A DNA stretch of 35,632 bases. Source: a virus. Shown here piece after piece: positions 5,782 through 34,030 of the stretch (the first letter of the stretch is position 1; the number at the start of each line of letters is the position of its first letter). A program made the position numbers and the translations under genes. The DNA lies in the IMG/VR virus record IMGVR_UViG_3300017613_000573, positions 1 through 35,632 of that record, one strand, 5' to 3'. Below the pieces are notes generated by a model. The model was not told the DNA's origin, did not search any database, and saw only the letters and a list, made by a program, of their open reading frames with translations.

Positions 5782-6152
5782 CTGTAATTCCTATCCTCTT
5801 TTGGTAGTGGTAATAGAGCCTTAACAGGTGGTATATACTCGTAATCTATACCCTGTATGGGCTCGCGCTCGATTTCTTTCGTTATTTCTGGCGGCTGTTT
5901 ATAGCCTGGCACTTTGGAAACGGTGTAAGTTTTATCCATGGCGTACCTCAAAGGCATGGCCCCTAGCCTATACCTCAAGCTGGATCTGGAGCAACCCATA
6001 GCCCTGGCCCAGTCAACCAGCTCGCGCTCTATACCTTGCCAGATAATGATCGTTTTAGACTTACCTCCGACTTTGCCGGGAAATTTAACGCAATCCCCTG
6101 GCATAGGCTCGAGGCCTGGCTTTATTGCTTCTAGTAATTTAACTCTAGTCAT
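5778..6152 (-). CDS. Hypothetical protein, possible HTH DNA-binding protein (124 aa)
   Basis: ATG at 6152 is preceded by GGGGA. The segment LVDWARAMGCSRSSLRYRL resembles an HTH. The family was not recognised. Confidence 0.6.
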   Translation of the reverse strand: MTRVKLLEAIKPGLEPMPGDCVKFPGKVGGKSKTIIIWQGIERELVDWARAMGCSRSSLRYRLGAMPLRYAMDKTYTVSKVPGYKQPPEITKEIEREPIQGIDYEYIPPVKALLPLPKEDRNYR

Positions 6153-6327
6153 AATTTTCCCCAAAACTGAAAAGCGTATAAGGGACTAAGCCGGGCTTAT
6201 CCCATCTCTTTGAAATAGGAAACCATAATAAAACTGAGTTGCCTACCTTGTAATACAGTATTGTTTTATCGGGTAGTAAAGCCCAGTGCGTTGCCCCATC
6301 AGGCATATAGATATGTTTATTAGCCAT
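6145..6327 (-). CDS. Hypothetical protein (60 aa)
   Basis: ATG at 6327 lies in an 8-nt ATGGCTAA overlap with the upstream stop. There is no recognisable motif. Confidence 0.5.
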   Translation of the reverse strand: MANKHIYMPDGATHWALLPDKTILYYKVGNSVLLWFPISKRWDKPGLVPYTLFSFGENYD

Positions 6328-7357: not shown

Positions 7358-7638
7358 GCTAACCTCCAAGCATAACAAAGGTTTCCAAAATCACCACGAC
7401 GCTGGATATCAGTTTTAATCAGCTTGTTATCATGGGTCAGGTTCGTCATGGCTCGGCGGATAGAGGTGATAGGCGTTTTATTAGTAAAGATAAGTTTATG
7501 CACCTCAAACGGTGTAAAATCATCTTTAGTTTTTTGGAATAACTCCAGGATTTTTTCTTCCTGGGTTAATGCTAAACAATCCCTCTTAGCAAGTTCCTCA
7601 AATTCCAGGCTATTCGTGTTGTAATAATGTTTTGTCAT
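7354..7638 (-). CDS. Winged-helix DNA-binding protein (94 aa)
   Basis: The leader is TTGCGAGGTtactATG. The segment FTPFEVHKL...TPITSIRRAMTNLTHDNKLIKT...GDFGNLCYAW looks like a wHTH recognition helix plus wing. Confidence 0.6.
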   Translation of the reverse strand: MTKHYYNTNSLEFEELAKRDCLALTQEEKILELFQKTKDDFTPFEVHKLIFTNKTPITSIRRAMTNLTHDNKLIKTDIQRRGDFGNLCYAWRLA

Positions 7639-7659
7639 AGTAACCTCGCAAGTTAATAG

Positions 7660-7691
7660 TTTATAGCATATAGCTATACTGCTCGATAATC
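7660..7691 (-). promoter_or_regulatory. Extended -10 promoter with the conserved early box (GTATAGCTATATGCTATAAA on the minus strand)
   Basis: TGcTATAAA (-10 at 7660-7665, TG at 7667-7668) lies 22 nt upstream of the ATG at 7638. The TATAGCTA palindrome is 3 nt upstream of TGC. The -35 is weak. Confidence 0.5.
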
Positions 7692-8033
7692 AATATATTA
7701 TTTATTCTCTTAATTTTATCCACAGTACGACTAATGACCTTAGGGACACCTATTTAAAATACAGGGATTCCTACGATATTCTTTTATTCTATTTGTTAAT
7801 CATCCATAACCAATATTGTATATATTATTGTCCACAACCCGATATCATCTATGAAAGGAGGTCAATCTGCCTACAGTGTCCACTAAAATGGTTTTACCGC
7901 CGGTCAATCCAGGCCTAAACATGGCTCTAGGAAAGCGGGAATATACAATTTCATCCAATTTTTTTAAAACTTCTCGCAGTTATACAGTGCCGTTGGCATA
8001 CCCGTGCTGTATTTGCGGTTGGTGTAGGACTAT

Positions 8034-8062
8034 TTGACAAAAATAGAAAGAGCAACGATAAT
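8034..8062 (+). promoter_or_regulatory. Near-consensus sigma70-type promoter: TTGACA-17 nt-GATAAT, pointing rightward
   Basis: TTGACA at 8034-8039, an exact 17-nt spacer, and GATAAT at 8057-8062. It lies in an otherwise non-coding 555-bp gap. Confidence 0.5.
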
Positions 8063-8087
8063 TGCGCTTAGCAGCAACGATAATTGC
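8051..8087. repeat. Two identical 15-bp direct repeats AGCAACGATAATTGC (8051-8065 and 8073-8087), 22-bp period; operator- or iteron-like
   Basis: Exact duplication read directly from the sequence. Each unit has GCAA-N6-TTGC dyad ends. Copy 1 covers the -10 of the 8034 promoter and copy 2 covers about +3 to +17. Confidence 0.7.
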
Positions 8088-8195
8088 TTCTACTTCTGTC
8101 AAACAGTCCCACACCTCGCAAGTGAAAGACTACAGGAATTTTCCCCACAGTCAATTCCAAAACTTGAAGGCCCCTATCTGGGGCCTTCTTCTATT
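8070..8195 (+). ncRNA. Candidate antisense small RNA of about 120 nt (promoter at 8034 to hairpin at 8167-8187)
   Basis: The predicted start is about 7 nt after GATAAT. The interval has no ATG and no RBS-linked start codon. It ends at an 8-bp GC-rich hairpin followed by CUUCUAUU. Confidence 0.3.
8167..8187 (-). terminator. Hairpin terminator (AAGGCCCC-5 nt-GGGGCCTT) 7 nt downstream of the stop of 8194-9162; possibly bidirectional
   Basis: Perfect 8-bp stem. The minus-strand downstream sequence is CAAGTTTTGG. Confidence 0.6.
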
Positions 8196-9162
8196 ACGCT
8201 ACTTTTTCCTCCTCAGGTTTATAAGTTTTAATCAGCTTTAATACGTCCAGGCTAAAGCAAGCCATATCCGAATTAAGGCCTTTATCTTTTAATTTGGGCT
8301 GGTTATCAACTACCTGGCGCACATCATTGAGATAGGCGTCGAGCTTCTCATAATCAGGGGCTAGGGCTTTGCGCTTAGCCTCAGCTTCTTTGTCAGCTTT
8401 CTCCTTGGCCTCAGCTTCATCCTTAAGGCGTTGCTCCTCCTCAGCGGCCTTACGTTCATTTTCAGCCTTTTCGTCGGCTTCGCGTTGTTGTTTATCGAGA
8501 GCGGCCTGTTTATCGTCTAGCTCTTTTTGCTGAGCGGCCATTTTTTCCTCACGCTCCTTATTTTCAGCTTCACGACGATCCAGGTCAATGCGGGCGTCCA
8601 GCGCCTTTTCAAGATCTGATTTAACTTGGTTAAAAGTTACCTGAGCCGGCTCGAGAAATTCCTGATATTTTTCCTCAGTAATCTCCAGAGCGTTAACCAT
8701 ATCCAGGCGGGCTTTGATAACATCAGTTGAGGCATTAAGCAGACCGTTAACCTGGTTTCTCATAGTGGCGATCATATCCTCAATGATCTGGATCCGGCTT
8801 TCCTCGGCTTCACGTTCCAGGCGCTCCTCCTCAGCTTTGGCTTGGTCCACTTTTTCGCGGGCCTCGACCATTGGCTGAGCGATATCCTTAAGGATTTCAG
8901 TAACGCGCTTTGCTTCTGCGTTAACTCCGCGCTGGTGCTCTAGGGCCTCAGCTGTTTGGACTTTTCGCTCCTTATCGACCGCGGCCCATAAGGTCCGGAG
9001 CTCTTGAACATTAGAAACAATTAACTGATAACCGTCGGCCGTATTGGCGTCCGGAACTACCTTAAATTTTTTCTTGAGCTCATTTAGCTTTTTATCGGTC
9101 ACACCTAGATTAACCAGGGCTTTTTTAGTTTGGGTTTTTACAGGGTCTTTAGTTGATGCCAT
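8194..9162 (-). CDS. Highly charged coiled-coil protein (322 aa) linked to the recombination genes
   Basis: GGAGG RBS. It has long E/K/A/R-rich heptad regions (EEERLEREAEE..., EKAENERKAAEEEQRLKDEAEAKEKADKEAEAKRK). It lies downstream of exo and erf, like the DUF1351-type partners seen in other phages. Confidence 0.6.
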   Translation of the reverse strand: MASTKDPVKTQTKKALVNLGVTDKKLNELKKKFKVVPDANTADGYQLIVSNVQELRTLWAAVDKERKVQTAEALEHQRGVNAEAKRVTEILKDIAQPMVEAREKVDQAKAEEERLEREAEESRIQIIEDMIATMRNQVNGLLNASTDVIKARLDMVNALEITEEKYQEFLEPAQVTFNQVKSDLEKALDARIDLDRREAENKEREEKMAAQQKELDDKQAALDKQQREADEKAENERKAAEEEQRLKDEAEAKEKADKEAEAKRKALAPDYEKLDAYLNDVRQVVDNQPKLKDKGLNSDMACFSLDVLKLIKTYKPEEEKVA

Positions 9163-9171
9163 TATGGCCTC

Positions 9172-9783
9172 CTATTTATTTAATACTTTTAAACAAAGAT
9201 TTCTCTCGGCCTCCACGGCCTTGAGTTGTTTTTTTAACGTATCAATCACCAATTGATCCGGGGTTATCCTAATCTGTAACATAGGGAGATCAGGATGATA
9301 AAAAACTAAATCGCACCAGGGGCGGCCAGTTACAAACATTTGGCCCTGTACCTGGGCGATATAAGTGGTCGGGGCGCGGCCGTGTTTATCGAAATACATC
9401 AGAGTTTTAACGTGCTCTTTAGGGATCTGGCATTTAAACTCGACCAGGCCAGGACCAGCTAATCCGTCTGGGCTGCAGCCGTACTGCATTAAGTCATTCG
9501 TGATAAAACCGACTTGCTCCACGTCGATATCATTATCCATTGAATAGGCCATGCGGGCAGACTCCTCGAGATCCTTGCCTCGATCCGTGTATTTATTACC
9601 CATAAAGCCATCCAGGACCTTACCGGCGTATTTTTCAGCGGCCAGAGCCATGGCATACTCAGGCATGGATTTGCTCACGGCGCCTGTACTTGTAACTAGT
9701 TTTGAAAATTCGCTGGCTGTAGGTATCCCGGCGCGTAGTGTGTGCCATTCTTCTGAGCCTTGTTCAACGTCGTGTATAATCAT
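9172..9783 (-). CDS. YqaJ-like (lambda Exo-type) recombination exonuclease
   Basis: The N-terminus QGSEEWHTLRAGIPTASEFSKLV is typical of the YqaJ family, and PDG...VEFKC matches the PD-(D/E)xK core. ATGA overlap with erf. Confidence 0.8.
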   Translation of the reverse strand: MIIHDVEQGSEEWHTLRAGIPTASEFSKLVTSTGAVSKSMPEYAMALAAEKYAGKVLDGFMGNKYTDRGKDLEESARMAYSMDNDIDVEQVGFITNDLMQYGCSPDGLAGPGLVEFKCQIPKEHVKTLMYFDKHGRAPTTYIAQVQGQMFVTGRPWCDLVFYHPDLPMLQIRITPDQLVIDTLKKQLKAVEAERNLCLKVLNK

Positions 9784-10553
9784 TCGCTTTTAGCCTTAAT
9801 TGCCATATTTAAACGGGTGATAACTGCCTCATAATTGCACTCATAGAGATCGTCGAAGCGATCCACTTTAAACGCCTCCTTTAACCAGCTCATAACCCTG
9901 GCCTCAGGGAGCTCGTTTTCTTTGATCATGGAGTCAATTTTTAATAACTGCTCCTCGCTCAACGTTTCAGGCAGTGGTCCGCCAGCCGCGTTCCCGTCGT
10001 CGTCGTTGCCTGTATTAAGATTAAATATTAAACAGGTTAGATATCTACGGCCGTAAGAATTAGCTGAACCGGTCCCGTGGGTTTTAGTTTTGTTAACCGC
10101 GCCCTTAATACCTGTAAGATCCAGAGGCGTATCAGTAAAATAATGCTTTGAAAAGCCTGAGGAGTGCATCACGTCGCATGTAACGCGAACATGATCAGCC
10201 AATGGGCTCTCAGCATTGCCGAAAGATAAAGCGAATCCCTCAGCCGTATAAACCGGCGTTATGGTTTTAATGATTACTTTCAAGTCTGAATAGCTAGAAT
10301 TTGTTTGATCATTCTCTCTATTTTTCACAATGGCCGGCATTTTTTTCTGAACCTCGACCATTGATATCGAGTAAGCTTGTTCAGCCTGGCGATCTAATAC
10401 GCGCTCCTGCATGTTTAAAAGTTTTTCCAGGCTATCTGCATCTACGCCATTTTCTAGGGCGGTCTGCAGCATACCCATAACCTGAGCCTCAGGAGAGAGC
10501 TGTTTTCTGCGAGCTCTCTTTTTTGGTACTACTGATAAATTATTTTCTGTCAT
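9780..10553 (-). CDS. erf: ERF-family single-strand annealing protein
   Basis: Motifs SYSDLKVIIKTITPVYTAEGFAL, VTCDVMHSSGF and THGTGSANSYGRRYLTCLIFNL, followed by a DDDG tail, match the ERF pattern. Confidence 0.8.
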   Translation of the reverse strand: MTENNLSVVPKKRARRKQLSPEAQVMGMLQTALENGVDADSLEKLLNMQERVLDRQAEQAYSISMVEVQKKMPAIVKNRENDQTNSSYSDLKVIIKTITPVYTAEGFALSFGNAESPLADHVRVTCDVMHSSGFSKHYFTDTPLDLTGIKGAVNKTKTHGTGSANSYGRRYLTCLIFNLNTGNDDDGNAAGGPLPETLSEEQLLKIDSMIKENELPEARVMSWLKEAFKVDRFDDLYECNYEAVITRLNMAIKAKSE

Positions 10554-10555
10554 TA

Positions 10556-10810
10556 TTAACTCCAGTGGTTATCATTACGCAGCTCGACCAATTCTAAAAA
10601 GCAAATTTTCGAGCATGTAATATCTGTTATATCGGGCTTGATGTGTGTTTCGATCCATACAGGCCTCTTACAGATCCGGCACTCGTATAGATCGTGGTTG
10701 TGTGATTTTGGGTAATATCCAAAATGATCCTTATATCTCAGGGACCATAATAAATATCTAACATTGTTATTTTGTGGGCTATTGCCCGTAAGAATTTTAC
10801 TTATATTCAT
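10556..10810 (-). CDS. Small Cys-containing (zinc-ribbon-like) protein
   Basis: GAGGT RBS. CRICKRP...CSKIC gives a pair of CxxC-like motifs. Confidence 0.55.
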   Translation of the reverse strand: MNISKILTGNSPQNNNVRYLLWSLRYKDHFGYYPKSHNHDLYECRICKRPVWIETHIKPDITDITCSKICFLELVELRNDNHWS

Positions 10811-10829
10811 CTCTACCTCGCCCGGTTAT

Positions 10830-10858
10830 TATATAGCAGATTGCTAGAAAGAGCCATA
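10830..10858 (-). promoter_or_regulatory. Extended -10 promoter of the early-box type (TGCTATATAA on the minus strand)
   Basis: The motif CTAGCAATCTGCTATATA lies about 20 nt upstream of the RBS of 10556-10810. The -35 is weak. Confidence 0.4.
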
Positions 10859-10881
10859 TTTCAGGCCCTTAATTCCCTTAA

Positions 10882-11457
10882 CTATCTTTGACAATTATAT
10901 GAAGTTTGATAAACCGGCTTACCTTCATAGGGTGACGCACTAGCATAGCTAGCAATTCTTACAGAGTTATACTGATTAACTCGTTTAAGCATTCCGTCGC
11001 CATCATTCAAAAATTTATCTTTTACCGGCTTTAAGTAATCAGCTCCAAAATCAGAACTATCAACCATTGCGCCGATCGCGCGGATCTTCACGGACTTTTT
11101 GCCAACCAGCTCAACTACTTGATAAAAATCAACATTAGTTTGATCATAGCCCCAGCTGGAATACAAGATATCTCCAACTTTTAGTGACATTTCAAAATTA
11201 TTTTTAGCTTCCTGTCTGGCTTTCTTCTCCTGAATCCTTCGCTCCAGATCATCCAGGTATTTATCGACGTACTCCTGGCGACGCTCCTCGCTTTTGAATC
11301 TCAGGAAAAAATCAGGCTTTGATCGCTTACCGCCAAAACCCTTGGCGACTGGACCGTTATCACCATCAGTCAAGTAGACCTCAGCCTGGACGCCTTCGCG
11401 CTCAACCTTTTCAGAATACTTACTAGGAATAAAAAACTCTCTGGACATTCTCATCAT
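10882..11457 (-). CDS. Hypothetical protein (191 aa)
   Basis: The leader TTGCGAGGTgtgaATG is the same leader motif as at 7638. There is no recognisable domain. Confidence 0.65.
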   Translation of the reverse strand: MMRMSREFFIPSKYSEKVEREGVQAEVYLTDGDNGPVAKGFGGKRSKPDFFLRFKSEERRQEYVDKYLDDLERRIQEKKARQEAKNNFEMSLKVGDILYSSWGYDQTNVDFYQVVELVGKKSVKIRAIGAMVDSSDFGADYLKPVKDKFLNDGDGMLKRVNQYNSVRIASYASASPYEGKPVYQTSYNCQR

Positions 11458-11489
11458 TCACACCTCGCAATTAATTAACCCACGCCTCT

Positions 11490-11518
11490 AATATAGCAAA
11501 TAGCTATACAGATTGCAA
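11490..11518 (-). promoter_or_regulatory. Strong sigma70-type early promoter: TTGCAA-17 nt-TATATT with extended TG and a TATAGCTA spacer palindrome
   Basis: The minus strand reads TTGCAATCTGTATAGCTATTTGCTATATT. It overlaps the 3' end of 11504-11719. Confidence 0.6.
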
Positions 11519-11719
11519 CAGTTTTTTATTCGCCTCTTTAATGGCCGCTCTTAATGATGGTAATTCCTTGGCTATTCTCATGCTGTTATAATAAACATTG
11601 AAGAATTTACCGTACTTGGCGATCGTATAGCCCTCGCATACTTTTTTAGGATAGGGGTATTCTCTCCAGCGGTTGTCCCAGAAACCGCCACCAGGTAATA
11701 AAGCTTTTTTAAATTTCAC
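11504..11719 (-). CDS. Hypothetical protein (71 aa)
   Basis: GTG start with GGAGGG 6 nt upstream. No motif recognised. Confidence 0.55.
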   Translation of the reverse strand: MKFKKALLPGGGFWDNRWREYPYPKKVCEGYTIAKYGKFFNVYYNSMRIAKELPSLRAAIKEANKKLLQSV

Positions 11720-11721
11720 AA

Positions 11722-12147
11722 TTAACCCTCCAAAATTGCGACCGCTTTCGCGTATCGTTTGGCCATGCTGGCCGGCATATCATAGTCTCGACTCGGATCC
11801 ATGTTATCGGCCAAGTCTGCTCGTTTTATCTTAATAGCGATATCGTTCCCGCTATCCTTAACTCTTTTAATAAAATCCAAATAAACATCACCAGGCTTTT
11901 TACTCACGATCACCACGGCGTTAACCACTTCGCCAGGCATACCCATAGCGATCAAGTCCTCAGCCTCCAGCTCACTATCCTCGATCGCGTCGTGTAATAA
12001 AGCCGCGGCCTCATAATAGGATCCATAACCAGAAACAGCCCTGGCCACGCTCAAAGGGTGATAGATATAATCCACGCCGGACTTATCTACCATGCCCCCA
12101 TAAGCAAAAGTAGCGATCTCAAAAGCTTTAATAACTAAATAATCCAC
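11722..12147 (-). CDS. HD-domain small alarmone hydrolase-like protein (SpoT/Mesh1-type (p)ppGpp/(p)ppApp pyrophosphohydrolase fold)
   Basis: Motif order YIYHPLSVARAV ... AALLHDAIEDS ... VVNAVVIVSKK ... IKRADLADNM matches the H..HD..D metal ligands and spacing of SpoT/Mesh1 hydrolase domains. It is 141 aa with no synthetase domain. Confidence 0.75.
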   Translation of the reverse strand: MDYLVIKAFEIATFAYGGMVDKSGVDYIYHPLSVARAVSGYGSYYEAAALLHDAIEDSELEAEDLIAMGMPGEVVNAVVIVSKKPGDVYLDFIKRVKDSGNDIAIKIKRADLADNMDPSRDYDMPASMAKRYAKAVAILEG

Positions 12148-12297
12148 TTATTCACCACCAACGTAATAACAATCAAAATCATTAACCCCGGAACCTGAAA
12201 ACTTACCAGATCCGGCGTATTCATTAACTGGGTATTTTTTAAGGTAGAGGCTCTGAGCTATTGCAAACAGAACCAGGCAAGAAAAGAAAACAACCAT
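12148..12297 (-). CDS. Small membrane protein (49 aa), first gene of the leftward early operon
   Basis: GGAGG lies 5 nt upstream of the ATG at 12297. The N-terminal TM segment is MVVFFSCLVLFAIAQSLYL. The longer ORF-track start at 12336 would overlap the promoter. Confidence 0.5.
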   Translation of the reverse strand: MVVFFSCLVLFAIAQSLYLKKYPVNEYAGSGKFSGSGVNDFDCYYVGGE

Positions 12298-12326
12298 ATC
12301 AACCTCCGAATTAACCCCACGGCTTA

Positions 12327-12355
12327 AATATAGCAATTAGCTATACAGATAGCAA
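12327..12355 (-). promoter_or_regulatory. Leftward early promoter: TTGCTA-17 nt-TATATT with extended TG and a TATAGCTA palindrome
   Basis: The minus strand reads TTGCTATCTGTATAGCTAATTGCTATATT. It is 23 nt upstream of the GGAGG of 12148-12297. Confidence 0.65.
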
Positions 12356-12374
12356 GTAATCAAATAATTTAATT

Positions 12375-12412
12375 TAGCCTATTGCTATATTTCATAGCTT
12401 AATGCTATATTT
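12375..12412 (+). promoter_or_regulatory. Rightward early promoter region: two tandem 18-nt boxes TAGCyTAwTGCTATATT (12375-12392 and 12395-12412)
   Basis: TTGCTA (12382-12387), an 18-nt spacer, then TGcTATATT (-10 at 12406-12411). The first box is itself an extended -10. The ATG at 12420 is only about 1-2 nt beyond the predicted start site. Confidence 0.55.
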
Positions 12413-12419
12413 ATATCCC

Positions 12420-12620
12420 ATGAATATTATGAAAAGCTGGCTTAGACGCCACACAAAAGAAGAAAACCAGGCCTTTGCCGATAAGATCGACACATCACTG
12501 ATGTATCTCGAGCAGATCGGCATGGGTATCCGGACGCCTTCGCCTAAAATGGCCGAGAAATTGGCCGAGGCGAGCGATAACGAGCTGGATAAGATGGGGC
12601 TTTTATTCCCGAATGGCTAA
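12420..12620 (+). CDS. Cro/YdaS-like HTH DNA-binding protein, probably translated from a leaderless or near-leaderless mRNA
   Basis: ENQAFADKIDTSLMYLEQIGMGIRTPSPKMAEKLAEAS has an HTH-like layout. No SD precedes the ATG at 12420 or 12429. It is the first gene after the rightward promoter. Confidence 0.6.
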   Translation: MNIMKSWLRRHTKEENQAFADKIDTSLMYLEQIGMGIRTPSPKMAEKLAEASDNELDKMGLLFPNG

Positions 12621-12807
12621 TAATTCCGAGGCTTATCGCTGGGAGTGTCTAGCTAGAACAGTCTGCAGGATGCCTGGAAAAGAAAGGCGAAAAGCATTTA
12701 TAGCTCGCTGGCGAAAGCGGCATGGTGTCGAGTCAGCTATTAAATTAAAAACCCTGGTCCGCGAACAGTGGGCCCTATTACATCCAAAGGAAAACAATAA
12801 TGTTTGA
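12613..12807 (+). CDS. Hypothetical basic protein (64 aa)
   Basis: ATGGCTAA overlap with the upstream stop. No motif recognised. Confidence 0.55.
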   Translation: MANNSEAYRWECLARTVCRMPGKERRKAFIARWRKRHGVESAIKLKTLVREQWALLHPKENNNV

Positions 12808-13363
12808 TATTAAATTCCGCACCCCTGAGATTCAGGAAAAAGGCCTCAAAGGAGATAGTTTAGTCTTAGTGGCTGATATCCCTCAAACCGTTAAATTATT
12901 CCAGGGTCAGCGCCTTAAAGTTAAAACCGGCGTGGCCATGAAAACGGATAACCATGCTTTCGCCATGGCTCTACGCGGTAATAACGAAATGGGCCTGGTG
13001 CTGGCTTGTGGTATGGAGCTCGTTAGCGACCAGGATGGCGAGGTCGAGATCCTGATGTGGAACCGAAACGCCCAAGGCACACCTCGAATGATCGAGATCA
13101 CCCCAATGATGCCTATTGCTCAGCTGTTATTTATGCCGGCTGCAGTTATTGAATTGCCAAAGGTAGAACAGGAAGAGACTGAGACTCAGCCAGAAACAGA
13201 AAAAACCCTGGAGCAGCTTGGCATTAAAGATCTGAGGGCTATTTTGGATATGAAAGCCCAGGACCAAGGTATAGAAACGGCCATGTATAAGCAGAAGGAT
13301 ACTAAATCTGAGCTTATCGCTTTAATTCGTGGATCTGGTAACGATGGCCAAGAAACAGGATAA
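12800..13363 (+). CDS. Divergent dUTPase-fold protein with a C-terminal HeH/Rho_N (SAP-like) motif
   Basis: Degenerate dUTPase motifs are present: KTGVAM, ALRGNNEMGL, ELVSDQDGEVEILMWN, PIAQLLF. The C-terminus TLEQLGIKDLRAIL...KSELIALI is HeH-like. Confidence 0.55.
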   Translation: MFDIKFRTPEIQEKGLKGDSLVLVADIPQTVKLFQGQRLKVKTGVAMKTDNHAFAMALRGNNEMGLVLACGMELVSDQDGEVEILMWNRNAQGTPRMIEITPMMPIAQLLFMPAAVIELPKVEQEETETQPETEKTLEQLGIKDLRAILDMKAQDQGIETAMYKQKDTKSELIALIRGSGNDGQETG

Positions 13364-13649
13364 ATATACCAAAAGCTCCAGGGGTAAACCGTGTCTGATC
13401 CGGATCCCTGGCTATTGTAAGCCGGCCCCTGAAAATGAAACTACGGTTTTATGCCATCTTAATGGCGGGGGTATGGCTTCAAAAAATCTAAATATACACG
13501 CGGCCGATGGCTGTAATGTCTGCCATGATATTGTCGATGGCCGAATGCAGAACACCGGCTTTACACCTGAGGAGATCGAGCTCATGTTTCTGCAGGGCGT
13601 TATCCGTACTCAGATAAGAATGGTTAATGATGGAACCTTAAAGCTTTGA
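13344..13649 (+). CDS. YbcO-like (DUF1364) putative nuclease
   Basis: RGKPCLIRIPGYC...ETTVLCHL...GCNVCHDIVDGR matches the conserved Cys/His pattern of E. coli prophage YbcO. Confidence 0.75.
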   Translation: MAKKQDKYTKSSRGKPCLIRIPGYCKPAPENETTVLCHLNGGGMASKNLNIHAADGCNVCHDIVDGRMQNTGFTPEEIELMFLQGVIRTQIRMVNDGTLKL

Positions 13650-13990
13650 ATCACTGGGAGGATAACGAACAAACAGCTCTTTTTCAGTGGGCGGCTCATT
13701 ACAAGGAATTGCGCTGGCTCCATGCGATCCCTAACGGTGGTAAGCGGCATAAAAAAGTAGCCATAAAGCTTAAGGCTCAGGGATTAAAGTCTGGCGTATT
13801 GGATATATTTTTGCCTAAAGCTCGCCAGGGGTTCCATGGGTTATATATTGAGATGAAGGTAGGAAAAAATAAATTAACCGCTAACCAGGCCGATTTTAAG
13901 GCCGAGGCCGATGCTGAGGGATATCGATGTGAGGTATGTTATTCCTGGGATGAGGCGAGAATTGTAATTAAGGATTACATGAATTTATGA
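13646..13990 (+). CDS. VRR-NUC domain nuclease
   Basis: EQTALFQW...HAIPNGG...LKAQGLKSGVLDIFLP...GLYIEMKVGKNKLTANQ matches the VRR-NUC PD-(D/E)xK pattern. TTG start overlaps the upstream stop. Confidence 0.8.
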   Translation: MNHWEDNEQTALFQWAAHYKELRWLHAIPNGGKRHKKVAIKLKAQGLKSGVLDIFLPKARQGFHGLYIEMKVGKNKLTANQADFKAEADAEGYRCEVCYSWDEARIVIKDYMNL

Positions 13991-14202
13991 ACGATAATAC
14001 TCTCAACTGGGTTATACCCGCTATCACTCTAGGCTATGCAGTAGTCCAGGACCGTGACGGGCGCCTGAGGTTTTTCTCCGAGGATGTTGAGATCGTACAC
14101 AGGAAAGGGGGCTGGATCGGGCGGGATAACGTGGATCCAGATCGAGAATATTTAGACTTGCCTCATGCCCTGCAGGGTGAGGCCTGGAGGTTGCCGGAAT
14201 GA
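13987..14202 (+). CDS. Hypothetical protein (71 aa)
   Basis: Coupled start (ATGA). No motif recognised. Confidence 0.5.
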   Translation: MNDNTLNWVIPAITLGYAVVQDRDGRLRFFSEDVEIVHRKGGWIGRDNVDPDREYLDLPHALQGEAWRLPE

Positions 14203-14519
14203 CAGATAAAATGCCAGATTTACTTCCTTGTCCGTTTTGTGGTGATCAGCCTCGTTCTTTCCATGATAAAAGTTCGGATTATGAGGCGCATTGGAGCTGG
14301 TCAGTAGTGTGTGAATGTGGTGGCGAAGTAAATCATGAATTTGATACAGAAAAAGAAGCCATAGAATGCTGGAACACCCGAACCCCCGCTGACCTTCAAG
14401 CGCTTAAGGAGAGGGTTATGAAAGAGGTTGAGAATGAATTAAGCAAGTACGATATACCTTTATTGGCGACAATAAAAGCTCAACAGGCAATCAACAAAGC
14501 ATGGGAGGGGATGGAGTGA
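14199..14519 (+). CDS. Lar-like restriction-alleviation family protein, paralog 1
   Basis: LLPCPFCG...VVCECGG...EKEAIECWNTR matches the Lar (Rac prophage) zinc-ribbon pattern. Confidence 0.7.
   Translation: MTDKMPDLLPCPFCGDQPRSFHDKSSDYEAHWSWSVVCECGGEVNHEFDTEKEAIECWNTRTPADLQALKERVMKEVENELSKYDIPLLATIKAQQAINKAWEGME
14370..14418 (+). repeat. 49-nt near-identical repeat, copy 1 (tggaacacc...gaccttcaagcgcttaaggagagggtta)
   Basis: Compared by eye with 14690-14738. The last 28 nt are identical and there are a few mismatches before that. The copies are 320 bp apart. Confidence 0.8.
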
Positions 14520-14851: not shown

Positions 14852-15075
14852 GCGAATGCGGACATAGTTTATATAACAAAACTTGTGGGTTGTGCAAAGA
14901 GAAACTATACACCCAATCCCAACTAGACGAGCTATTAAGACAGCAGCGAGAGGCTTGCTGGGATTCATTTTGTACTATTCCAAAATATAGCAGGCCAATG
15001 ATGGAAGGTGATTTCTATAAGGCTAAAAAAGCAATCCTAAACGCCAAAGTTTTGGAGGAAGATGATGGGCATTAA
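14848..15075 (+). CDS. Small Cys-rich protein (75 aa)
   Basis: GGGAGGAG RBS and an ATGA overlap. CGHSLYNKTCGLC is a possible zinc knuckle. Confidence 0.5.
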   Translation: MSECGHSLYNKTCGLCKEKLYTQSQLDELLRQQREACWDSFCTIPKYSRPMMEGDFYKAKKAILNAKVLEEDDGH

Positions 15076-15607
15076 ATTAACACAAGAAGCCTTAAAAAAT
15101 CTGCTCGATTATAATCAGGAAACAGGCGTGTTTTTATGGAAAGACAGAGAAGACAACAGGCTAAATTGGAACAAGAGATACTCAGGAAAAGTGGCTGGAT
15201 GTATACGAGATGGACAGTATATAGATATTTCTATCTATAAAAAAACTTATCTGGCTCATAGACTGGCTTGGCTTTATGTTTACGGCAAATGGCCTGATCA
15301 TCAAATAGATCATATTAACGGATTAAAAGCAGATAATAGAATTATTAATTTAAGGGATGTCACACCAGCAGAGAATTGCAAAAATATTTTAATGTCGGAT
15401 AGGAATACATCAGGAATAACTGGTGTTCATTGGACTACTACTGATAAACATTGGATTTCAGTAATAAGAGCAAATAATAACTACATTTATTTAGGCATGT
15501 TTAAAGGTAAATTCGAGGCTTGTTGTGCCCGTAAATCAGCAGAGATTGAATATGGTTTCCATGAAAATCATGGTAATAAGCGAATTAGCAAGGAAGGTGT
15601 GGAGTGA
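15062..15607 (+). CDS. HNH homing endonuclease with an AP2-type DNA-binding domain
   Basis: LAHRLAWLYVYGKWPDHQIDHINGLKADNRIINLR is an HNH_3 motif. SGITGVHW...WISVIRANNNYIYLGMF is AP2-like. The gene is AT-rich relative to its flanks. Confidence 0.8.
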   Translation: MMGIKLTQEALKNLLDYNQETGVFLWKDREDNRLNWNKRYSGKVAGCIRDGQYIDISIYKKTYLAHRLAWLYVYGKWPDHQIDHINGLKADNRIINLRDVTPAENCKNILMSDRNTSGITGVHWTTTDKHWISVIRANNNYIYLGMFKGKFEACCARKSAEIEYGFHENHGNKRISKEGVE

Positions 15608-28829: not shown

Positions 28830-30890
28830 ATGCCACAGGTTAAACGATTTGATCCTACTATAGGAAGTCAGCCGCGGGTCCAGACGGGCGCCCAAGAACA
28901 AATGCTTGGCTCTCTGGCAGACCGTTTAAGAGGTTTTGCCACTCGAGAAAATAAACTGGCGGACATTGAAGCCCAAAAAGAAGGCGAGCGAGCGGGTGAA
29001 GCTGCAGCGGCCGGGCGTGTTGGTGGTGTTGATATCCCTGAGGATATGACTATCCGCGACCAGGCTTTCGCTACCGGCGCAAGGGTCGCTCATACAGCAG
29101 CTATCCAAACTGATATCCGTAAAACGGTGGCGGATCTTGAGCTGAATAACCAGAATGATATCGGTAATTTCAATTTAGAGTTTGATGCCTATAAAGAGGG
29201 CCTGTTATCTGAGGTCGATGATTCGCTCAAACCTATGGCTATCAAGGAAATGGGAGATTATTCTCTCCGCTCTAAGGTTCGTATTGAAAAAACCATGTTT
29301 GATACGGCTCAGACTGAGCAGCTGGCTGCGATTAATACCGCTTCTGATGGCTTTAAAGACGACGCCATGAGCTCAGCCTATAATGGCGACAATGCGCTCT
29401 ATGACAGCAAGCGAGAGGATTATTTCGACTTATTGGACTCGGGGGTGGAAAGTGGGCTCCTGGATAAAAATAAAGTAGAAATCACTAAGCGAGCCTTCGA
29501 GGATGAGGCTCTCATGCGTACAGTAACCGGCGCTTTTGATCGTACAATCGATGAGGAAGGTCTGGACCAGGCTGAGGAGTCTTATAAAAAATTCAGATCT
29601 AAAAAACACCAGGGCGTCGATCCGGATCTAGTTGATAAAATCGATAACAAGATGAAAGCGGCCCTAACCCAGGAGCGGGCTCGAGTTCGCTCTGAGATAA
29701 CTAGGGGTAAAGCGGTTATAACTGCCAGGGAAAAGGCCCTGGATCGCACAGTAAAAAATGCCGAGTATTCCCTAGACCATGGGCGCCAGGTCGAGGGATT
29801 GCCTGAGCTGATCGAGGTTTCACGTGGAACAAAGCACGAAGCCACGCTCAAATCGATACAGATCCACCAGGACGCAGTTAATGAGTTTGTGCAGTTATCA
29901 CCGGCTCAAATGGATGAAACCCTGAATAAACAAAACCAGAAAAAATTATCCGGCGAGCAAGTTCGATTAGTTGAGCGCCTGGAGAAAACTCGAGACTATA
30001 CACGCGGCGAGCTTAAATCTGGCCGAGGCCTGGACCTGGCTCTGGAGCAAAACATTATTGAGGATCTTCCCCCATTAGGTGAGGAGGGAGCTTTCCAGGA
30101 GAGAGCAAGATTATCCAAGGTAGCCGAGGAGCATTATGGTCAGCCTATTTCACCCATGACGGATAGCGAGATCGATGATTTTAAAGCGGGCCTGGATGAA
30201 ATGAGCTCGGATGAAAAAATCGTGGCTATGGGTCAGCTGGCCGAGGGCCTGGGTACTGAGTCTTTACCTCTATTGGAAAACCTGGCCGGAAAGAATAGCG
30301 GGACCTATGCGGTCGCGGGTAGCTTAATGGTTGAGGGTCGAGGTAATTTAGGCCGTGAAATGATCAAGGGCCTGGATGCTCGAGCGGCTTATCCTAAAAT
30401 AATCCCTAAGGATTTTGATACGCAATTTAATAACATCATAAAAACAGCCTATGCCAGGACGCCCAAACAGGTGGAGGTATTGCGCGACTCAATGCGGAAT
30501 ATATACGCCCAAAGAGCGGCCAATAATGGCAATGTTGACGGTGTGGCGGTAGATACCGAGGTATTAACCGGCGCATTTAACGAGGTTACTGGTGGCGTGT
30601 ACTCCCTGGAGGATCAGGGCTCTGGTTTCTTTATGGATAATGCTTATGATATCGAGGCGCCTCAGCCTGGAGTTGATCAAGATCAATTTATCGACTGGAT
30701 GGAAAATATCACCCAGGCAGAAGTTGAGGATATGGGTGCGGGCAGTATCGCGCCTGAGCTTTCAAAAGCTATTAACGATATGAGCGTAAAATTGATTACA
30801 CTGGGCGACGGAAACTATCAGGTAATTAGAAACGGCTTACCCGTGGTTAACGATGACCTAACCCCATTTACTTTAACCTGGCCTAAATAA
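28830..30890 (+). CDS. Internal virion / ejection protein (686 aa)
   Basis: Assigned by position and size. No enzymatic motif recognised. Confidence 0.55.
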   Translation: MPQVKRFDPTIGSQPRVQTGAQEQMLGSLADRLRGFATRENKLADIEAQKEGERAGEAAAAGRVGGVDIPEDMTIRDQAFATGARVAHTAAIQTDIRKTVADLELNNQNDIGNFNLEFDAYKEGLLSEVDDSLKPMAIKEMGDYSLRSKVRIEKTMFDTAQTEQLAAINTASDGFKDDAMSSAYNGDNALYDSKREDYFDLLDSGVESGLLDKNKVEITKRAFEDEALMRTVTGAFDRTIDEEGLDQAEESYKKFRSKKHQGVDPDLVDKIDNKMKAALTQERARVRSEITRGKAVITAREKALDRTVKNAEYSLDHGRQVEGLPELIEVSRGTKHEATLKSIQIHQDAVNEFVQLSPAQMDETLNKQNQKKLSGEQVRLVERLEKTRDYTRGELKSGRGLDLALEQNIIEDLPPLGEEGAFQERARLSKVAEEHYGQPISPMTDSEIDDFKAGLDEMSSDEKIVAMGQLAEGLGTESLPLLENLAGKNSGTYAVAGSLMVEGRGNLGREMIKGLDARAAYPKIIPKDFDTQFNNIIKTAYARTPKQVEVLRDSMRNIYAQRAANNGNVDGVAVDTEVLTGAFNEVTGGVYSLEDQGSGFFMDNAYDIEAPQPGVDQDQFIDWMENITQAEVEDMGAGSIAPELSKAINDMSVKLITLGDGNYQVIRNGLPVVNDDLTPFTLTWPK

Positions 30891-33800
30891 TGCAGAATTT
30901 TGATCGACGTGGCATAGAGGATCTAAACGATGAGGCTCGACGTGTAGGCCCTACCGGGGCGGAAAGCTTTGAGGAGCCTGGTTTCCTTGAGGTCCATAAT
31001 GCTTTCGACAAATATTCTACTAACGAGGCGCGATCAGACTCCGAGGAAATTCTCATGGAGGCGGACGTTAATACCGCGCTCGAGGCTTATGCTCAAGTAA
31101 GGCCTGATATCAGGGATATGATGGAGCCGGATATGGTTACGCCTGGTTATATGGCGCCTAGTTTTTATAAACGCAAAGAATTATTAAAGGCCCTGGAGCA
31201 AGATATCATTCGGGATCAGGCAAAATTCCCGGACGCGGGCCTGTCTACACTGGGCTCATTGATGCAAGCCACCCAGGAAAAAGCAAAAACAGACCGAGAA
31301 ACGGCCATGAGAATGTTTGCCAATGCTCGGGGTATGTCAAAAGCTGGCATTGTCACCGGTGCGGCTACCGGTATTATTACAGATCCTTTAATCCTGGCGA
31401 CTCTACCCATGGGCGCGGGTACAATCTCTGGCGCTGGTATCGCTGGAAACGCATTTAAAGCTTTTAAGCTTGAGGCCATGATCGCGGGCGTATCTGAAAC
31501 CGCTATCCAGCCACAAGTCTACAACTGGAAAAAACAAATAAACTCGCCCTATTCGGTCCAAGAGGCGGCGCTTAATATCGTGGTGGCCATGGGTGCAGCT
31601 GGCGCCATACGTGCTACAGGCTCGACGATCGTGGACGTAGCGGAGCTCAGGGGTGCGGCCAAGTTAAAACGCACCGAGGGCGGTAAGACGGCTAATTCTG
31701 AGGCCGATATCCTGGAGTCTCATGCCGATAATATCGAGGCGGCGGGTGAGGATATTCCTGGACACTTCGACGCAATGGACCAGGCGATCGATCGATTCGA
31801 GGGCGGACGTTCCGCGGACACTGGAAAAACGGCTGAGCATGTTGAGGCGGTGGATCCAAATAGTGTTTTAATTGATGCAGATCAATTTCAGTTTAAAGCG
31901 GGTGCGGATATCGAGGGAGTAACTGAGCGCCTAAAAGGTGTTGAGCGCTGGGATCCAAAGCTGGCCGGTATTGCGATCGTGTACGAAAACAACCAGAGCC
32001 AGCGGTTTATTGTAGATGGCCATCAGAGAGTTAGCCTGGCTAAACGTATGATCGAAGGCGGCCAGGATCCATCCGAGGTAAACCTTAACGCGATAGTCCT
32101 CAGAGAGGGGGATGGCGTTAGCGTTGCCGATGCCAGGCAGATAGCCGCGGTTAAAAATATAGCCGAGGGAACCGGGTCCGCGGTGGATACCGCTAAGATA
32201 TTCAGAGAGCTCGGAGAAACCGGGCTGGATCTTATGCCTAGTTTACCTCCTAAATCAGCCCTTGTTGCTGCAGGGCGCGGGCTGGCTAACCTGGATGATG
32301 ATGCCTTTGTCATGGTTATTAATGGCGTGGTAGACGAGCGCATAGGCGGTATTGTGGGCGAATTGGTCCAGGATGGTGCTGAACAAAAAGCAATTATCAG
32401 CGCTCTGGCTCAGGCTGAACCAGCTAACCAGGTCCAGGCTCGTATCATGGTTAATGATATGAAAGCGGCCGGATTTCAAAAAACAGAGACTATGGACCTA
32501 TTTGGCGGCCAGGAAATAACTGAGAGCCTATTCAAAGAACGTGCCAAAATTGTAGAGCATACACTCAAAAGATTGCGCAATGACAAGGCAACCTTTAAAA
32601 CTTTGGAGCGCCAGGCTTCTGATATTGCCGACGCTGGTAACGTATTAAAACGCGAGGCTAACCTTGCTAGGATTGCTACCGATGAAGAAACGATCGCACA
32701 AATCACAAAATCAGCAAACACAAAAGGGGATATCTCCGACGCGCTCAGCGAAGCCAGCCGCACCCTCAAAGAAACCGGTAACGTCAACCAAGCGACCAAT
32801 GATTTTCTCGGGGCCATTCGAGGAGCGGACGCTGAACAACGTGCTCCGGGGGTTAGAGCTGGCGAGCCTGGACAACCTACAGAAGCAATAGAGTTTAAAA
32901 AAGGTAAGCCGGTCAACTTTGATAATCTCGATGAGGTTGGCCAGAAAGCGGCTGAGATTGAATTTAAAAGCAAACAGGCCGGCCGAAGTGTTGAGGATAC
33001 TTACAAAGTAGCTACTAAAAACCAGGGCCAATTAACTCGAGCAGCTAACTCTATTAAAAAGGAATTAGGTGAGGACGTTGAATACCTAAACCCTGGTATT
33101 AAAAAGCGAGCGGATACTGAGGCCAAGGTCGAGCGTAAGGGTTACGTGGATGCTGGAGAATTGACCGACGTGGTTCGCGGTGGCTTCCTGGTACGCACCC
33201 AGGGCCAGGGCGATCAAGTGGCTGATCTTCTGGCTAAAAAATTCGAGGTTATGGATGAGTCCTGGAAGGTAAACGATGCCGGATACTTCGATCGCAAGGT
33301 TATGGTCCGATTTAAGGATGGCACAGTGGGCGAGATCCAGATCTGGGAGCCGCACATGCTACTCGCTAAAGAGGGCGAGGCCGGTCTTAAGTTTATTCCT
33401 AAAAAATGGATCGATCCAAAACAAAGAGTATTAACTAATACGGCCTCAGGTCATGGCATTTATGAACGTATGCGAGCCTTAATTAAGGACGGACGTGTGA
33501 CGGACGTTAAAGCTTATAGAGCGCTCGAGGCAGAATCAGCGGAAGTTTATGCCGACGCTATGCGATCAGCAAACATGGATTGGAAGACGCTCATAGAAAC
33601 ACGGCGACCAGAATCCAAGATTTCAGCCGGTGAGGCTTTAGACCAGGCGCCTGGTGCGGCGTCAGATTTAACGAAGAAGCCAGAAATACCCTCAGGCGTT
33701 TCAACAACGACGGCGGGGCGGGCTTCCCAGTTAACCCAGGATGTGACTGATGATGGTGTGAAAGGAGTTTCCATACCTGATAATATAGCAAAGGGCGATA

Positions 33801-34030
33801 AGGAAATCAAAGCAAAATACACGGATGAGCCAGTGGATCCAGAAGTGGCGGCCAAAGAGGCGGCCCTGGATCGTGAGATATACGACCAGGATTTAGATAT
33901 CCCGGTCGGGATTAAAACCGACGAGGATGGTAATATCGTCGCACACACCCTGAGCGCTCGAGAGGTTTATGATGATATCGACGGCCAGGCTAATGCGCTG
34001 AAAGAGCTGGAGGGCTGTTTAGTTGGCTAA
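30890..34030 (+). CDS. Large internal virion 'polyvalent' protein: glycine-zipper membrane region, ParB-like domain, RelA/SpoT-like nucleotidyltransferase domain
   Basis: Hydrophobic G/A-rich region (GIVTGAATGIITDPLILATLPMGAGTISGAGIAGN). ParB/Srx-like FIVDGHQRVSLAKRM (about 31850-32130). RSH-like PGIKKRADTEAKVERKG..LTDVVRGGFLV..AGYFDRKVMVRF.DGTVGEIQIW (about 33095-33480). Confidence 0.7.
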   Translation: MQNFDRRGIEDLNDEARRVGPTGAESFEEPGFLEVHNAFDKYSTNEARSDSEEILMEADVNTALEAYAQVRPDIRDMMEPDMVTPGYMAPSFYKRKELLKALEQDIIRDQAKFPDAGLSTLGSLMQATQEKAKTDRETAMRMFANARGMSKAGIVTGAATGIITDPLILATLPMGAGTISGAGIAGNAFKAFKLEAMIAGVSETAIQPQVYNWKKQINSPYSVQEAALNIVVAMGAAGAIRATGSTIVDVAELRGAAKLKRTEGGKTANSEADILESHADNIEAAGEDIPGHFDAMDQAIDRFEGGRSADTGKTAEHVEAVDPNSVLIDADQFQFKAGADIEGVTERLKGVERWDPKLAGIAIVYENNQSQRFIVDGHQRVSLAKRMIEGGQDPSEVNLNAIVLREGDGVSVADARQIAAVKNIAEGTGSAVDTAKIFRELGETGLDLMPSLPPKSALVAAGRGLANLDDDAFVMVINGVVDERIGGIVGELVQDGAEQKAIISALAQAEPANQVQARIMVNDMKAAGFQKTETMDLFGGQEITESLFKERAKIVEHTLKRLRNDKATFKTLERQASDIADAGNVLKREANLARIATDEETIAQITKSANTKGDISDALSEASRTLKETGNVNQATNDFLGAIRGADAEQRAPGVRAGEPGQPTEAIEFKKGKPVNFDNLDEVGQKAAEIEFKSKQAGRSVEDTYKVATKNQGQLTRAANSIKKELGEDVEYLNPGIKKRADTEAKVERKGYVDAGELTDVVRGGFLVRTQGQGDQVADLLAKKFEVMDESWKVNDAGYFDRKVMVRFKDGTVGEIQIWEPHMLLAKEGEAGLKFIPKKWIDPKQRVLTNTASGHGIYERMRALIKDGRVTDVKAYRALEAESAEVYADAMRSANMDWKTLIETRRPESKISAGEALDQAPGAASDLTKKPEIPSGVSTTTAGRASQLTQDVTDDGVKGVSIPDNIAKGDKEIKAKYTDEPVDPEVAAKEAALDREIYDQDLDIPVGIKTDEDGNIVAHTLSAREVYDDIDGQANALKELEGCLVG

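Follow-up and report, generated by a model that had tools for sequence, protein, structure and literature searches.

Why would a phage encode, apparently among its first-expressed genes, a hydrolase predicted to erase a nucleotide signal that its own virion is predicted to write? The question is raised by a small HD-domain gene at 11722-12147 (minus strand) of virus record IMGVR_UViG_3300017613_000573, which was analyzed over its whole length of 35,632 nt (hereafter, the window). An earlier reading of the sequence (the original prediction) took the gene for a SpoT/Mesh1-type alarmone hydrolase and proposed that it might counteract an RSH-fold domain within the virion protein encoded at 30890-34030. 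Here, sequence and structure comparisons are used to assign the HD protein to the Aph1 family of (p)ppApp hydrolases. Its role is rather likely that of an antidote to the phage's own Tas1-like domain, a putative adenosine 3'-pyrophosphokinase (Apk) domain embedded in the 1046-amino-acid (aa) virion protein.

Family and predicted substrate of the HD protein

The gene under study is the following.

11722..12147, minus strand: gene of a predicted Aph1-family (p)ppApp hydrolase, 141 aa (open reading frame, sequence match, alignment, AlphaFold 2 model and Foldseek)

It forms an intact 141-aa open reading frame (ORF) in which all previously quoted motifs were located (FAYGGM, aa 14-19; YHPLSVA, aa 29-35; LLHDAIED, aa 50-57; RADLADNM, aa 109-116), and the JGI gene caller gives an identical 141-aa product on the source contig (P0004; JGI metagenome 3300017598). 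The start codon is a GTG that abuts the TAA of a small upstream ORF, with a Shine-Dalgarno-like run (GGTGGTG) 8-14 nt 5' of it. As had been proposed, the protein carries no synthetase domain. Megablast of positions 10500-14500 against isolated phages returned no match, which leaves this phage without a close cultured relative.

Comparison with HD_4 and SpoT profiles, named in the original prediction as a check on the family, gave weak matches to the N-terminal part of the protein. Pfam HD_4 scored 22.5 bits against a gathering threshold of 27.2, its alignment limited to the first half of the model (positions 1-72 of 156), while the NCBIfam spoT_relA match was limited to aa 8-83 and the SpoT/Rel models aligned solely over aa 4-87. 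A match to PHROG 990 ("metal-dependent phosphohydrolase") was obtained with an E-value of 1.5e-38. Among PDB sequences, the best phmmer match was 7SMG, annotated as "(p)ppApp hydrolase" (E 1.3e-20, aa 4-126), whereas chains of Rel, SpoT and small alarmone hydrolases (SAHs) all had E-values of at least 4.7e-6, placing 7SMG ahead by fifteen orders of magnitude. The protein in 7SMG is Aph1, which comes from a prophage of Bacteroides caccae and founded the family of monofunctional (p)ppApp hydrolases (PMC10083569). The closest homologues in isolated phages are HD genes of pneumococcal prophages (49.6% identity), for which Aph1 activity has been shown (PMC12226406).

An AlphaFold 2 model of the HD protein, built from a three-sequence alignment (pLDDT 88, pTM 0.85), led to the same family. 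Foldseek placed the four 7SMG chains on top (E 3.6e-9, root-mean-square deviation 2.2 A), with TM scores of 0.87/0.86 (query/target) and 38% identity over the full length (144 alignment columns). MESH1, PaSAH, RelH and Rel hydrolase domains followed at E-values of at least 1e-4 with partial cover of the larger targets, and target-side TM scores on the 172-193-aa SAHs and MESH1 were 0.54-0.66. The protomer, modeled as a single chain, is compact and eight-helical and lacks helix 9, which (p)ppGpp-type SAHs have at their C-terminus. Aph1 itself forms a homotetramer in solution. Homology to Aph1 extends through the C-terminal third (Aph1 Y90-E143; phmmer to aa 126, Foldseek over the full length), the region that Ahmad et al. 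used to split Aphs from other HD hydrolases (PMC10083569). Other HD families, such as dNTP triphosphohydrolases or YpgQ-type enzymes, were considered and rejected: none appeared among the Pfam or NCBIfam matches or the top folds, and YpgQ-type structures matched the model solely at Foldseek E > 0.1. An unrelated HD family, the outcome that was to have undermined the original prediction, was thus not what the searches returned.

At the residue level, the metal center of 7SMG (H33, H53-D54 and D113) has its counterpart in H30, H52-D53 and D114, ligands that are invariant in a seven-sequence alignment of phage Aph-like proteins. A six-residue specificity signature has been described for Aph1 (D24, R96, D116, R119, K133, Y134), of which the D24R/R119A double mutant acquires ppGpp activity (PMC10083569). 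The corresponding positions in the HD protein are D21, R95, D117, R120, R131 and Y132; five of the six are identical, and the Arg that conservatively replaces K133 is found in all three phages of this clade. Both ppGpp-excluding residues (Aph1 D24 and R119) are kept as D21 and R120. In TtRel, R43 and R44 stack on or bond to the guanine base, and in Aph1 the space of guanine O6 is taken by R119 (PMC10083569); the HD protein has D21-K22 at the positions of this Arg pair, and its R120, like R119 in Aph1, occupies the pocket. The window protein therefore resembles Aph1 and its pneumococcal, Mannheimia and Pasteurella prophage orthologues in family, fold and metal ligands, and also in length (141 aa compared to ~140-149 aa). 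Aph1 H19 and Q22 are replaced by Y16 and M19. The original prediction had read the loss of the first His of the AHxGQ motif (FAYGGM) as a meaningful deviation, a view that did not hold up: this position is H, Y or F across phage Aph-like proteins, and because it is variable and neither a metal ligand nor among the six specificity residues, the substitution was given no weight.

By sequence and model, the HD protein is thus an Aph1-family homologue and not a generic SpoT/Mesh1 hydrolase. It is predicted to be a metal-dependent 3'-pyrophosphohydrolase that should turn pppApp, ppApp and pApp into ATP, ADP and AMP, with little or no activity on (p)ppGpp. Of the original assignment, homology to alarmone hydrolases stands, but the type differs, as the 7SMG match and the signature point to (p)ppApp rather than to a (p)ppGpp-directed SAH. 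The weak N-terminal HD_4 and spoT_relA matches could be accounted for by a generic (p)ppGpp hydrolase, with which the infecting phage would suppress the stringent response of its host. We consider such an enzyme highly improbable and set it aside, since HD_4 stayed below threshold, the guanine-contacting Arg pair is replaced with R120 in the space of the guanine carbonyl, the fold is far closer to Aph1, and 12 of 12 tested Aph homologues hydrolyzed ppApp, two of them with modest ppGpp activity (PMC10083569). Other substrates, namely 3'-pyrophosphorylated tRNA CCA ends as generated by CapRel/FaRel2-type defense, or NADPH and 3'-phosphoadenosine 5'-phosphosulfate (PAPS) as for MESH1, have some precedent in the literature, where certain SAHs reverse tRNA pyrophosphorylation and MESH1 accepts both small molecules; moreover, 5VXA and 9CHY were among the weaker fold matches of the model. 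Such a substrate is scarcely probable, given that the adenine-specific Aph1 signature is intact and that tRNA activity of the Aph family has been shown neither here nor in PMC10083569 and PMC12226406.

The SAH antitoxins of toxSAS modules (for example ATfaRel) and phage-encoded SpoT/Mesh1 SAHs share the principle of an HD hydrolase that neutralizes an RSH toxin through its product. These SAHs belong to another HD subfamily and differ from the window protein by their larger nine-helix fold, their usual place in bicistronic toxin-antitoxin operons and a broader or guanosine-directed specificity.

The Tas1-like domain of the 1046-aa virion protein

The presumed source of the (p)ppApp lies at the other end of the window.

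30890..34030, plus strand: 1046-aa multidomain "polyvalent" internal virion protein at the position of T7 gp16 (gene order, sequence)
32936..33607, plus strand: Tas1/Apk-like RSH synthetase domain, aa 683-906 (profile, AlphaFold 2, Foldseek)
31844..32833, plus strand: ParB-like module, aa 319-648, with DGHQR at 376-380 (PHROG 10691, E 3e-59; PHROG 21)

A Pfam scan of the 1046-aa protein found no domain, the RSH domain being invisible to PF04607, and PHROG matches were confined to the ParB-like module. A single-sequence PDB search yielded Tas1 as the sole match (E 0.02, aa 699-895). Since word-indexed homologue searches gave just three to six matches per query, an exhaustive representative search with aa 674-926 was used instead, which returned 570 clusters at 50% identity (395 scoring below 1e-10); among the best 150 of these clusters, the domain mostly lies within large proteins of 1000-3000 aa. 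A profile built from 26 diverse members was then run against the PDB and matched 6OX6 over the whole Tas1 toxin domain (aa 243-435) with an E-value of 2e-19, followed by 8VX3, an exported Streptomyces alarmone synthetase (E 6e-4), and 2BE3, a RelQ-type enzyme (E 4e-3). Likewise, the AlphaFold 2 model of aa 683-906 (pLDDT 92.5) had 6OX6_A as its top Foldseek match (E 2.1e-8, TM 0.63/0.71), whereas the (p)ppGpp synthetases RelP, RelQ and Rel had E-values of at least 7e-5. The RSH-fold domain claimed for this protein is thereby confirmed by profile match and model, with Tas1 as its nearest relative.

RSH synthetases rely on ATP-binding Lys/Arg residues, an Mg-binding Asp, a GY motif and a catalytic E-x-Q. 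Eight residues (K738, K746, D760, R763, Y799, D801, E815, Q817) are invariant in the 26 homologues and align with the Syn-motif residues of Tas1. Tas1/Apk1 and the MuF-fused Apk2 make (p)ppApp exclusively (PMC10083569, PMC12226406), and the virion domain is therefore best read as an adenosine 3'-pyrophosphokinase. While Tas1/Apk1 (6OX6), a type VI secretion system (T6SS) effector of P. aeruginosa, is the closest solved relative of aa 683-906, the window domain differs from the PAAR-fused toxin in its 24% identity, the lack of PAAR and of a Tis1 partner, and its likely delivery by a phage particle. Neither a PAAR nor a MuF delivery domain was found in the 1046-aa protein, and the Apk domain is internal with 140 residues after it. 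The domain would therefore work like an Apk and yet be neither Apk1 nor Apk2, having no PAAR, no MuF and no C-terminal location.

Protein inhibitors of the Tis1/IapK type were also sought. No such gene lies next to the Apk gene, where the next gene encodes an ~800-aa virion protein and starts at the stop codon. A comparison of pneumococcal IapK with all ORFs of the window gave nothing (E 5.6), although a very divergent inhibitor could escape sequence methods, and the two small ORFs beside the hydrolase gene had no PDB match even though the Tas1-Tis1 complex (6OX6) is in the PDB. As no inhibitor of this type is detectable, the hydrolase may be the sole antidote.

The 1046-aa protein begins with a hydrophobic part rich in Gly and Ala (hydrophobic stretches at about aa 150-245), followed by the ParB-like module, the Apk domain and a C-terminal tail. 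Its gene stands in an order that parallels T7 gp12-gp13/14-gp15-gp16, running from the nozzle (26285-28333; PF25675, PHROG 376) through 164-aa, 686-aa and 1046-aa proteins to the ~800-aa protein, a position suggesting that the 1046-aa protein is packaged and ejected. No relatives of the 686-aa internal protein were found. Polyvalent phage proteins with RelA/SpoT and ParB-like domains, predicted to be delivered together with DNA, are described in the survey of Iyer et al. 2017 (PMC5512222). The window protein shares both modules with these, and a sister phage, IMGVR_UViG_3300033148_001837 (35,818 bp), has a 710-aa orthologue (L003 ORF 1695..3827) that lacks exactly the ParB-like module, consistent with modular accretion; the module is a clean example of gain or loss within a polyvalent virion protein. 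In the parts of the survey consulted, (p)ppGpp-like alarmone synthesis was predicted, no hydrolase partner was linked to the synthetase domains, and these came from Helicobacter and spirochaete prophages and not from the podovirus-type lineage of the window. Homologues of the ParB-like module were found by tblastn in Ruegeria phage 45A6, "Dunaliella viridis virus SI2" and Prochlorococcus P-SCSP1 phages, and the module also occurs in portal-fusion proteins (PHROG 21).

The window ends (35512-35632) with the same 121 nt with which it starts (1-121); the assembly is therefore either circular or terminally redundant, and its true length is 35,511 bp. A reading of the final 1.6 kb, seemingly free of ORFs, as non-coding sequence was rejected, as this stretch holds part of the ~800-aa virion structural gene (PHROG 684), which runs from 34023-35632 and continues at 1-914, split by the arbitrary contig start; the sister phage holds an intact 800-aa orthologue (L003 3820..6222).

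Domains of the window type are almost confined to metagenomic phage proteins of 700-2900 aa and alphaproteobacterial prophages, with more than 110 loci in IMG/VR. A genome-contig search with a single pattern gave five loci, and prophage hosts include Mesorhizobium, Rhodoblastus, Methylobacterium, Rhodoplanes and Rhodospirillales. None was found in 50,697 isolated phage records (INPHARED), even at tblastn E <=0.01. With a domain abundant in uncultured phages and alphaproteobacterial prophages but absent from ~50,000 isolated genomes, virion proteins that write alarmones may be a common, unstudied takeover tool. Some variants of the gene stand apart. Stand-alone versions of 266-270 aa occur in L248 (10001-10801) and L249 (5167-5979), and one of these contigs also encodes an integrase. 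Behind the L249 copy come two tiny ORFs (67 and 45 aa; 5990-6193 and 6190-6327), candidates for IapK-like inhibitors. In the podovirus-type relative L247 the Apk gene was called as two overlapping ORFs (7537-10050 and 10001-11254; 837 and 417 aa), which could reflect a frameshift, a sequencing error or programmed slippage, and no Aph gene was found in the 21 kb fetched for this relative.

Probable partnership of hydrolase and synthetase

From sequence, the virion domain should make what the early HD protein is predicted to hydrolyze, which supports the toxin/antidote pair put forward in the original prediction; sharing one metabolite, Apk and Aph would have what such a pair requires. Precedents exist in temperate phages, as Aph1 is the demonstrated immunity protein for Apk2 in Bacteroides and pneumococcal MuF prophages, with homologous modules in Pasteurellaceae, and protects by destroying the product of the toxin, so that it works against non-cognate synthetases too (PMC10083569, PMC12226406). 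In the pneumococcal prophages the module order is portal, MuF (Apk2), a 70-aa ORF (IapK) and HD.

The linkage of both genes was assessed across phages, with Aph having a base rate of ~0.4% in isolated phage genomes (192 of 50,697 records). The sister phage carries both genes in the same places, with 76% (Aph) and 48% (Apk) identity. When IMG/VR loci bearing an Aph gene were searched with an iterated RSH profile, an Apk domain was found directly upstream in 48 of 80, each time at the very C-terminus of the upstream ORF, on the same strand and with a gap of less than 600 nt, the layout of the known MuF-Apk2-IapK-Aph1 module. In three further independent lineages (L058, L073 and L253, the last a Methylobacterium prophage), a window-type Apk domain lies in a giant protein with Aph 0.4-3 kb away, each time on the opposite strand.

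In the other 32 of the 80 IMG/VR loci with Aph, no Apk lies within 10 kb, a result that fits an alternative in which the hydrolase serves counter-defense, degrading (p)ppApp from host FaRel-type toxSAS or abortive infection systems, or from a T6SS Apk1 attack, and so keeping the infected cell productive. Aph1 does protect against Tas1, hydrolase immunities being interchangeable and product-directed (PMC10083569, PMC12226406), and early expression from its own promoter, as the gene position suggests, would suit an anti-defense gene. We nevertheless regard this role as unlikely. A simpler source of substrate is at hand in the Tas1-like synthetase of the window genome and its sister, the Apk detectable near phage Aph genes is phage-encoded in 48 of 48 cases, no PADLOC-type relation was found, and no host toxSAS can be named.

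Several points weigh against an antidote to the phage's own synthetase. A distance of 19 kb (~13 kb if measured around the circle) and a difference in strand separate the two genes, which are linked by co-occurrence and share no operon. Loci were searched with 10-kb flanks, within which 78 of 80 viral loci with a window-type Apk showed no Aph; as the genes of the window are 13-19 kb apart, distal Aph copies went uncounted. Three further Apk-bearing relatives had no Aph in 13-21 kb of fetched sequence. Given that most phages with a window-type Apk show no nearby Aph, the partnership appears facultative and not obligatory. An independent role of Aph is also possible, since bacteria commonly carry Aph1 homologues in settings that have nothing to do with toxins (PMC10083569). 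Closeness to Tas1 is on its own no proof of a (p)ppApp product, as the toxSAS enzymes also include makers of (p)ppGpp and enzymes that pyrophosphorylate tRNA. Finally, synthesis of early proteins needs ATP, which is awkward to reconcile with a strong ATP-depleting enzyme among the injected proteins.

If the hydrolase is the antidote to the virion domain, as we favor, infection could proceed as follows. The 1046-aa protein would enter the cell together with the DNA, and its Apk domain would make (p)ppApp, consuming ATP and ADP and blocking purine synthesis. Nucleotide consumption and a block of purine synthesis are the mechanism shown for Tas1 and Apk2. Host RNA polymerase would transcribe the promoter-flanked Aph cassette (described below) among the first genes, and the hydrolase would cap or reverse intoxication by the few injected Apk copies. 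Made before late synthesis of the Apk-bearing protein, Aph would already be present when many copies accumulate, and could therefore also guard the producing cell until packaging. These two protective phases, switching off an early pulse and protecting the cell late, are plausible and not exclusive. Both enzymes would have to be active and to interact genetically.

A stronger form of the proposal, that injected Apk crashes ATP and purine synthesis as a time-limited alarmone pulse that early Aph then ends while recycling the nucleotides, is possible but doubtful. If correct, a few injected copies would disarm ATP-dependent host defenses and host gene expression within the first minutes, and the recycled nucleotides would feed phage replication. 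The antidote on the opposite strand, seen in four independent lineages and unlike the co-transcribed MuF modules, would be a signature of temporal programming. The phage would then be the first virus both to write and to erase a bacterial alarmone signal in its infection programme, and the Tas1-like domains in internal virion proteins of phages, a large and uncultured family, would gain a function.

Compared to the Apk2-IapK-Aph1 module of MuF prophages, the window has in common a virion carrier, a Tas1-like toxin domain and a product-degrading hydrolase immunity, as its hydrolase is phage-encoded and co-resident with a Tas1-like synthetase on a virion protein. The carrier, however, is a podovirus-type polyvalent protein of ~1000 aa at the gp16 position instead of a ~540-aa MuF/SPP1 gp7 protein, the Apk domain is internal instead of C-terminal, no protein-inhibitor immunity is detectable and no integrase was seen. 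Toxin and antidote, tricistronic with the inhibitor in the MuF module, are in separate transcription units. Unlike Aph1, the window gene lies outside the head-morphogenesis operon and not 3' of the toxin, has no IapK/Tis1 gene before it, and sits 19 kb from the toxin on the other strand in a promoter-flanked cassette of its own. The toxin-immunity logic of Apk and Aph is thus already known; what is new is the virion carrier, the lack of a detectable inhibitor and the uncoupling in strand and place, to which uncoupling in time can probably be added.

For phage (p)ppApp synthetase toxins, injection, target and the need for immunity are still open (PMC10083569, PMC12226406). The window genome offers a cleaner test case than the MuF prophages, as its synthetase resides in a protein whose position predicts ejection, and with no detectable protein-inhibitor immunity to confound the outcome, the sole visible antidote is a separately transcribed hydrolase with predicted early expression. 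For the loss of either active site, direct predictions follow on the levels of (p)ppApp, on the shutdown of the host and on burst size.

Promoters and neighbors of the hydrolase cassette

The hydrolase gene is the second ORF after a promoter and belongs to a small cassette with these further features.

12327..12355, minus strand: sigma-70-like promoter TTGCTA-17-TATATT, overlapping the operator-like palindrome ATAGCAATTAGCTAT (promoter scan, repeats, relatives)
12148..12336, minus strand: small hydrophobic ORF, first in the cassette, 62 aa from TTG or 49 aa by the JGI call (ORF list, gene call)
11504..11719, minus strand: 71-aa ORF, last in the cassette (ORF list)
11490..11518, minus strand: second promoter/operator copy, TTGCAA-17-TATATT, 3' of the cassette and 5' of the LPD29-Erf-exonuclease genes (promoter scan, repeats)

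The promoter described earlier as lying 180 nt upstream of the HD gene was found at that distance, measured from the end of the -10 hexamer to the start codon. It scored 9/12 with a TG extension in a scan whose total was weakly above chance (6 sites compared to 3.4 +/- 2.1 in shuffles), and was accepted as real because it is conserved at the same place in the diverged relatives L001 and L002, where the promoter with its embedded palindrome-like ATAGCAAnTAGCTAT also precedes the Aph orthologue (76% protein identity). The top-scoring promoter-like site of the region (TGGCCA-18-TATAAT, 10/12, 12042-12071, plus strand) is antisense within the Aph gene and probably a chance match.

Promoter and operator-like site are held in a 40-nt direct repeat (11479-11518 and 12316-12355, 88% identical) that brackets orf62, Aph and orf71, and the downstream LPD29, Erf, YqaJ-exonuclease and replication genes therefore have their own promoter copy. 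L001 and L002 keep the downstream copy too, making the two-promoter layout common to three diverged phages. The small ORFs are less constant. Neither had a PHROG, PDB or PADLOC match; the 62-aa ORF is not conserved in L001 or L002, while the 71-aa ORF shows no similarity to IapK/Tis1, is missing from L001 and has a 59-aa ORF at its position in L002. With promoters kept and small ORFs not, the early cassette appears to be a self-contained, moron-like unit with Aph as its conserved cargo.

This cassette heads the recombination/replication operon and sits in a divergent control region opposite a gene for a Cro-like helix-turn-helix protein (12402-12620, plus strand), whose predicted binding site is probably the palindrome ATAGCAAnTAGCTAT. 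The promoter with its operator-like palindrome has four occurrences in the divergent early control region, and sites were recorded in the window (11479-11518, 12316-12355 and 12375-12413), in L001 (9622 and 10436) and in L002 (9828 and 10607). The window genes include no recognizable integrase, repressor or phage RNA polymerase, making early transcription by the host polymerase likely, and the position of the cassette suggests early timing.

An immediate-early location with operator-like sites would also suit superinfection protection, in which early Aph of a resident or first-arriving phage neutralizes Apk domains injected by later related phages and so shields the ongoing infection, and a product-directed antidote works whichever virion delivered the synthetase (PMC12226406). 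With no integrase or repressor found in the window, there is no long-term resident state to protect; as an explanation of the gene such a role is very unlikely, and it would be an addition to an antidote against the phage's own synthetase and not an alternative to it.

PADLOC, Rfam and tRNA scans of the window found nothing. The gene just 3' of the cassette (10882-11457, minus strand) encodes a solo LPD29 protein (PHROG 37844; PF18847 in L001 and L002). LPD29 is otherwise known from large polyvalent proteins, with 304 confirmed loci in viral contigs, and when this neighbor was used as a query for related early regions, 80 unrelated phages were returned. In the rightward operon, two HNH endonuclease genes (13329-13649 and 15062-15607, plus strand) lie 5' of the terminase genes.

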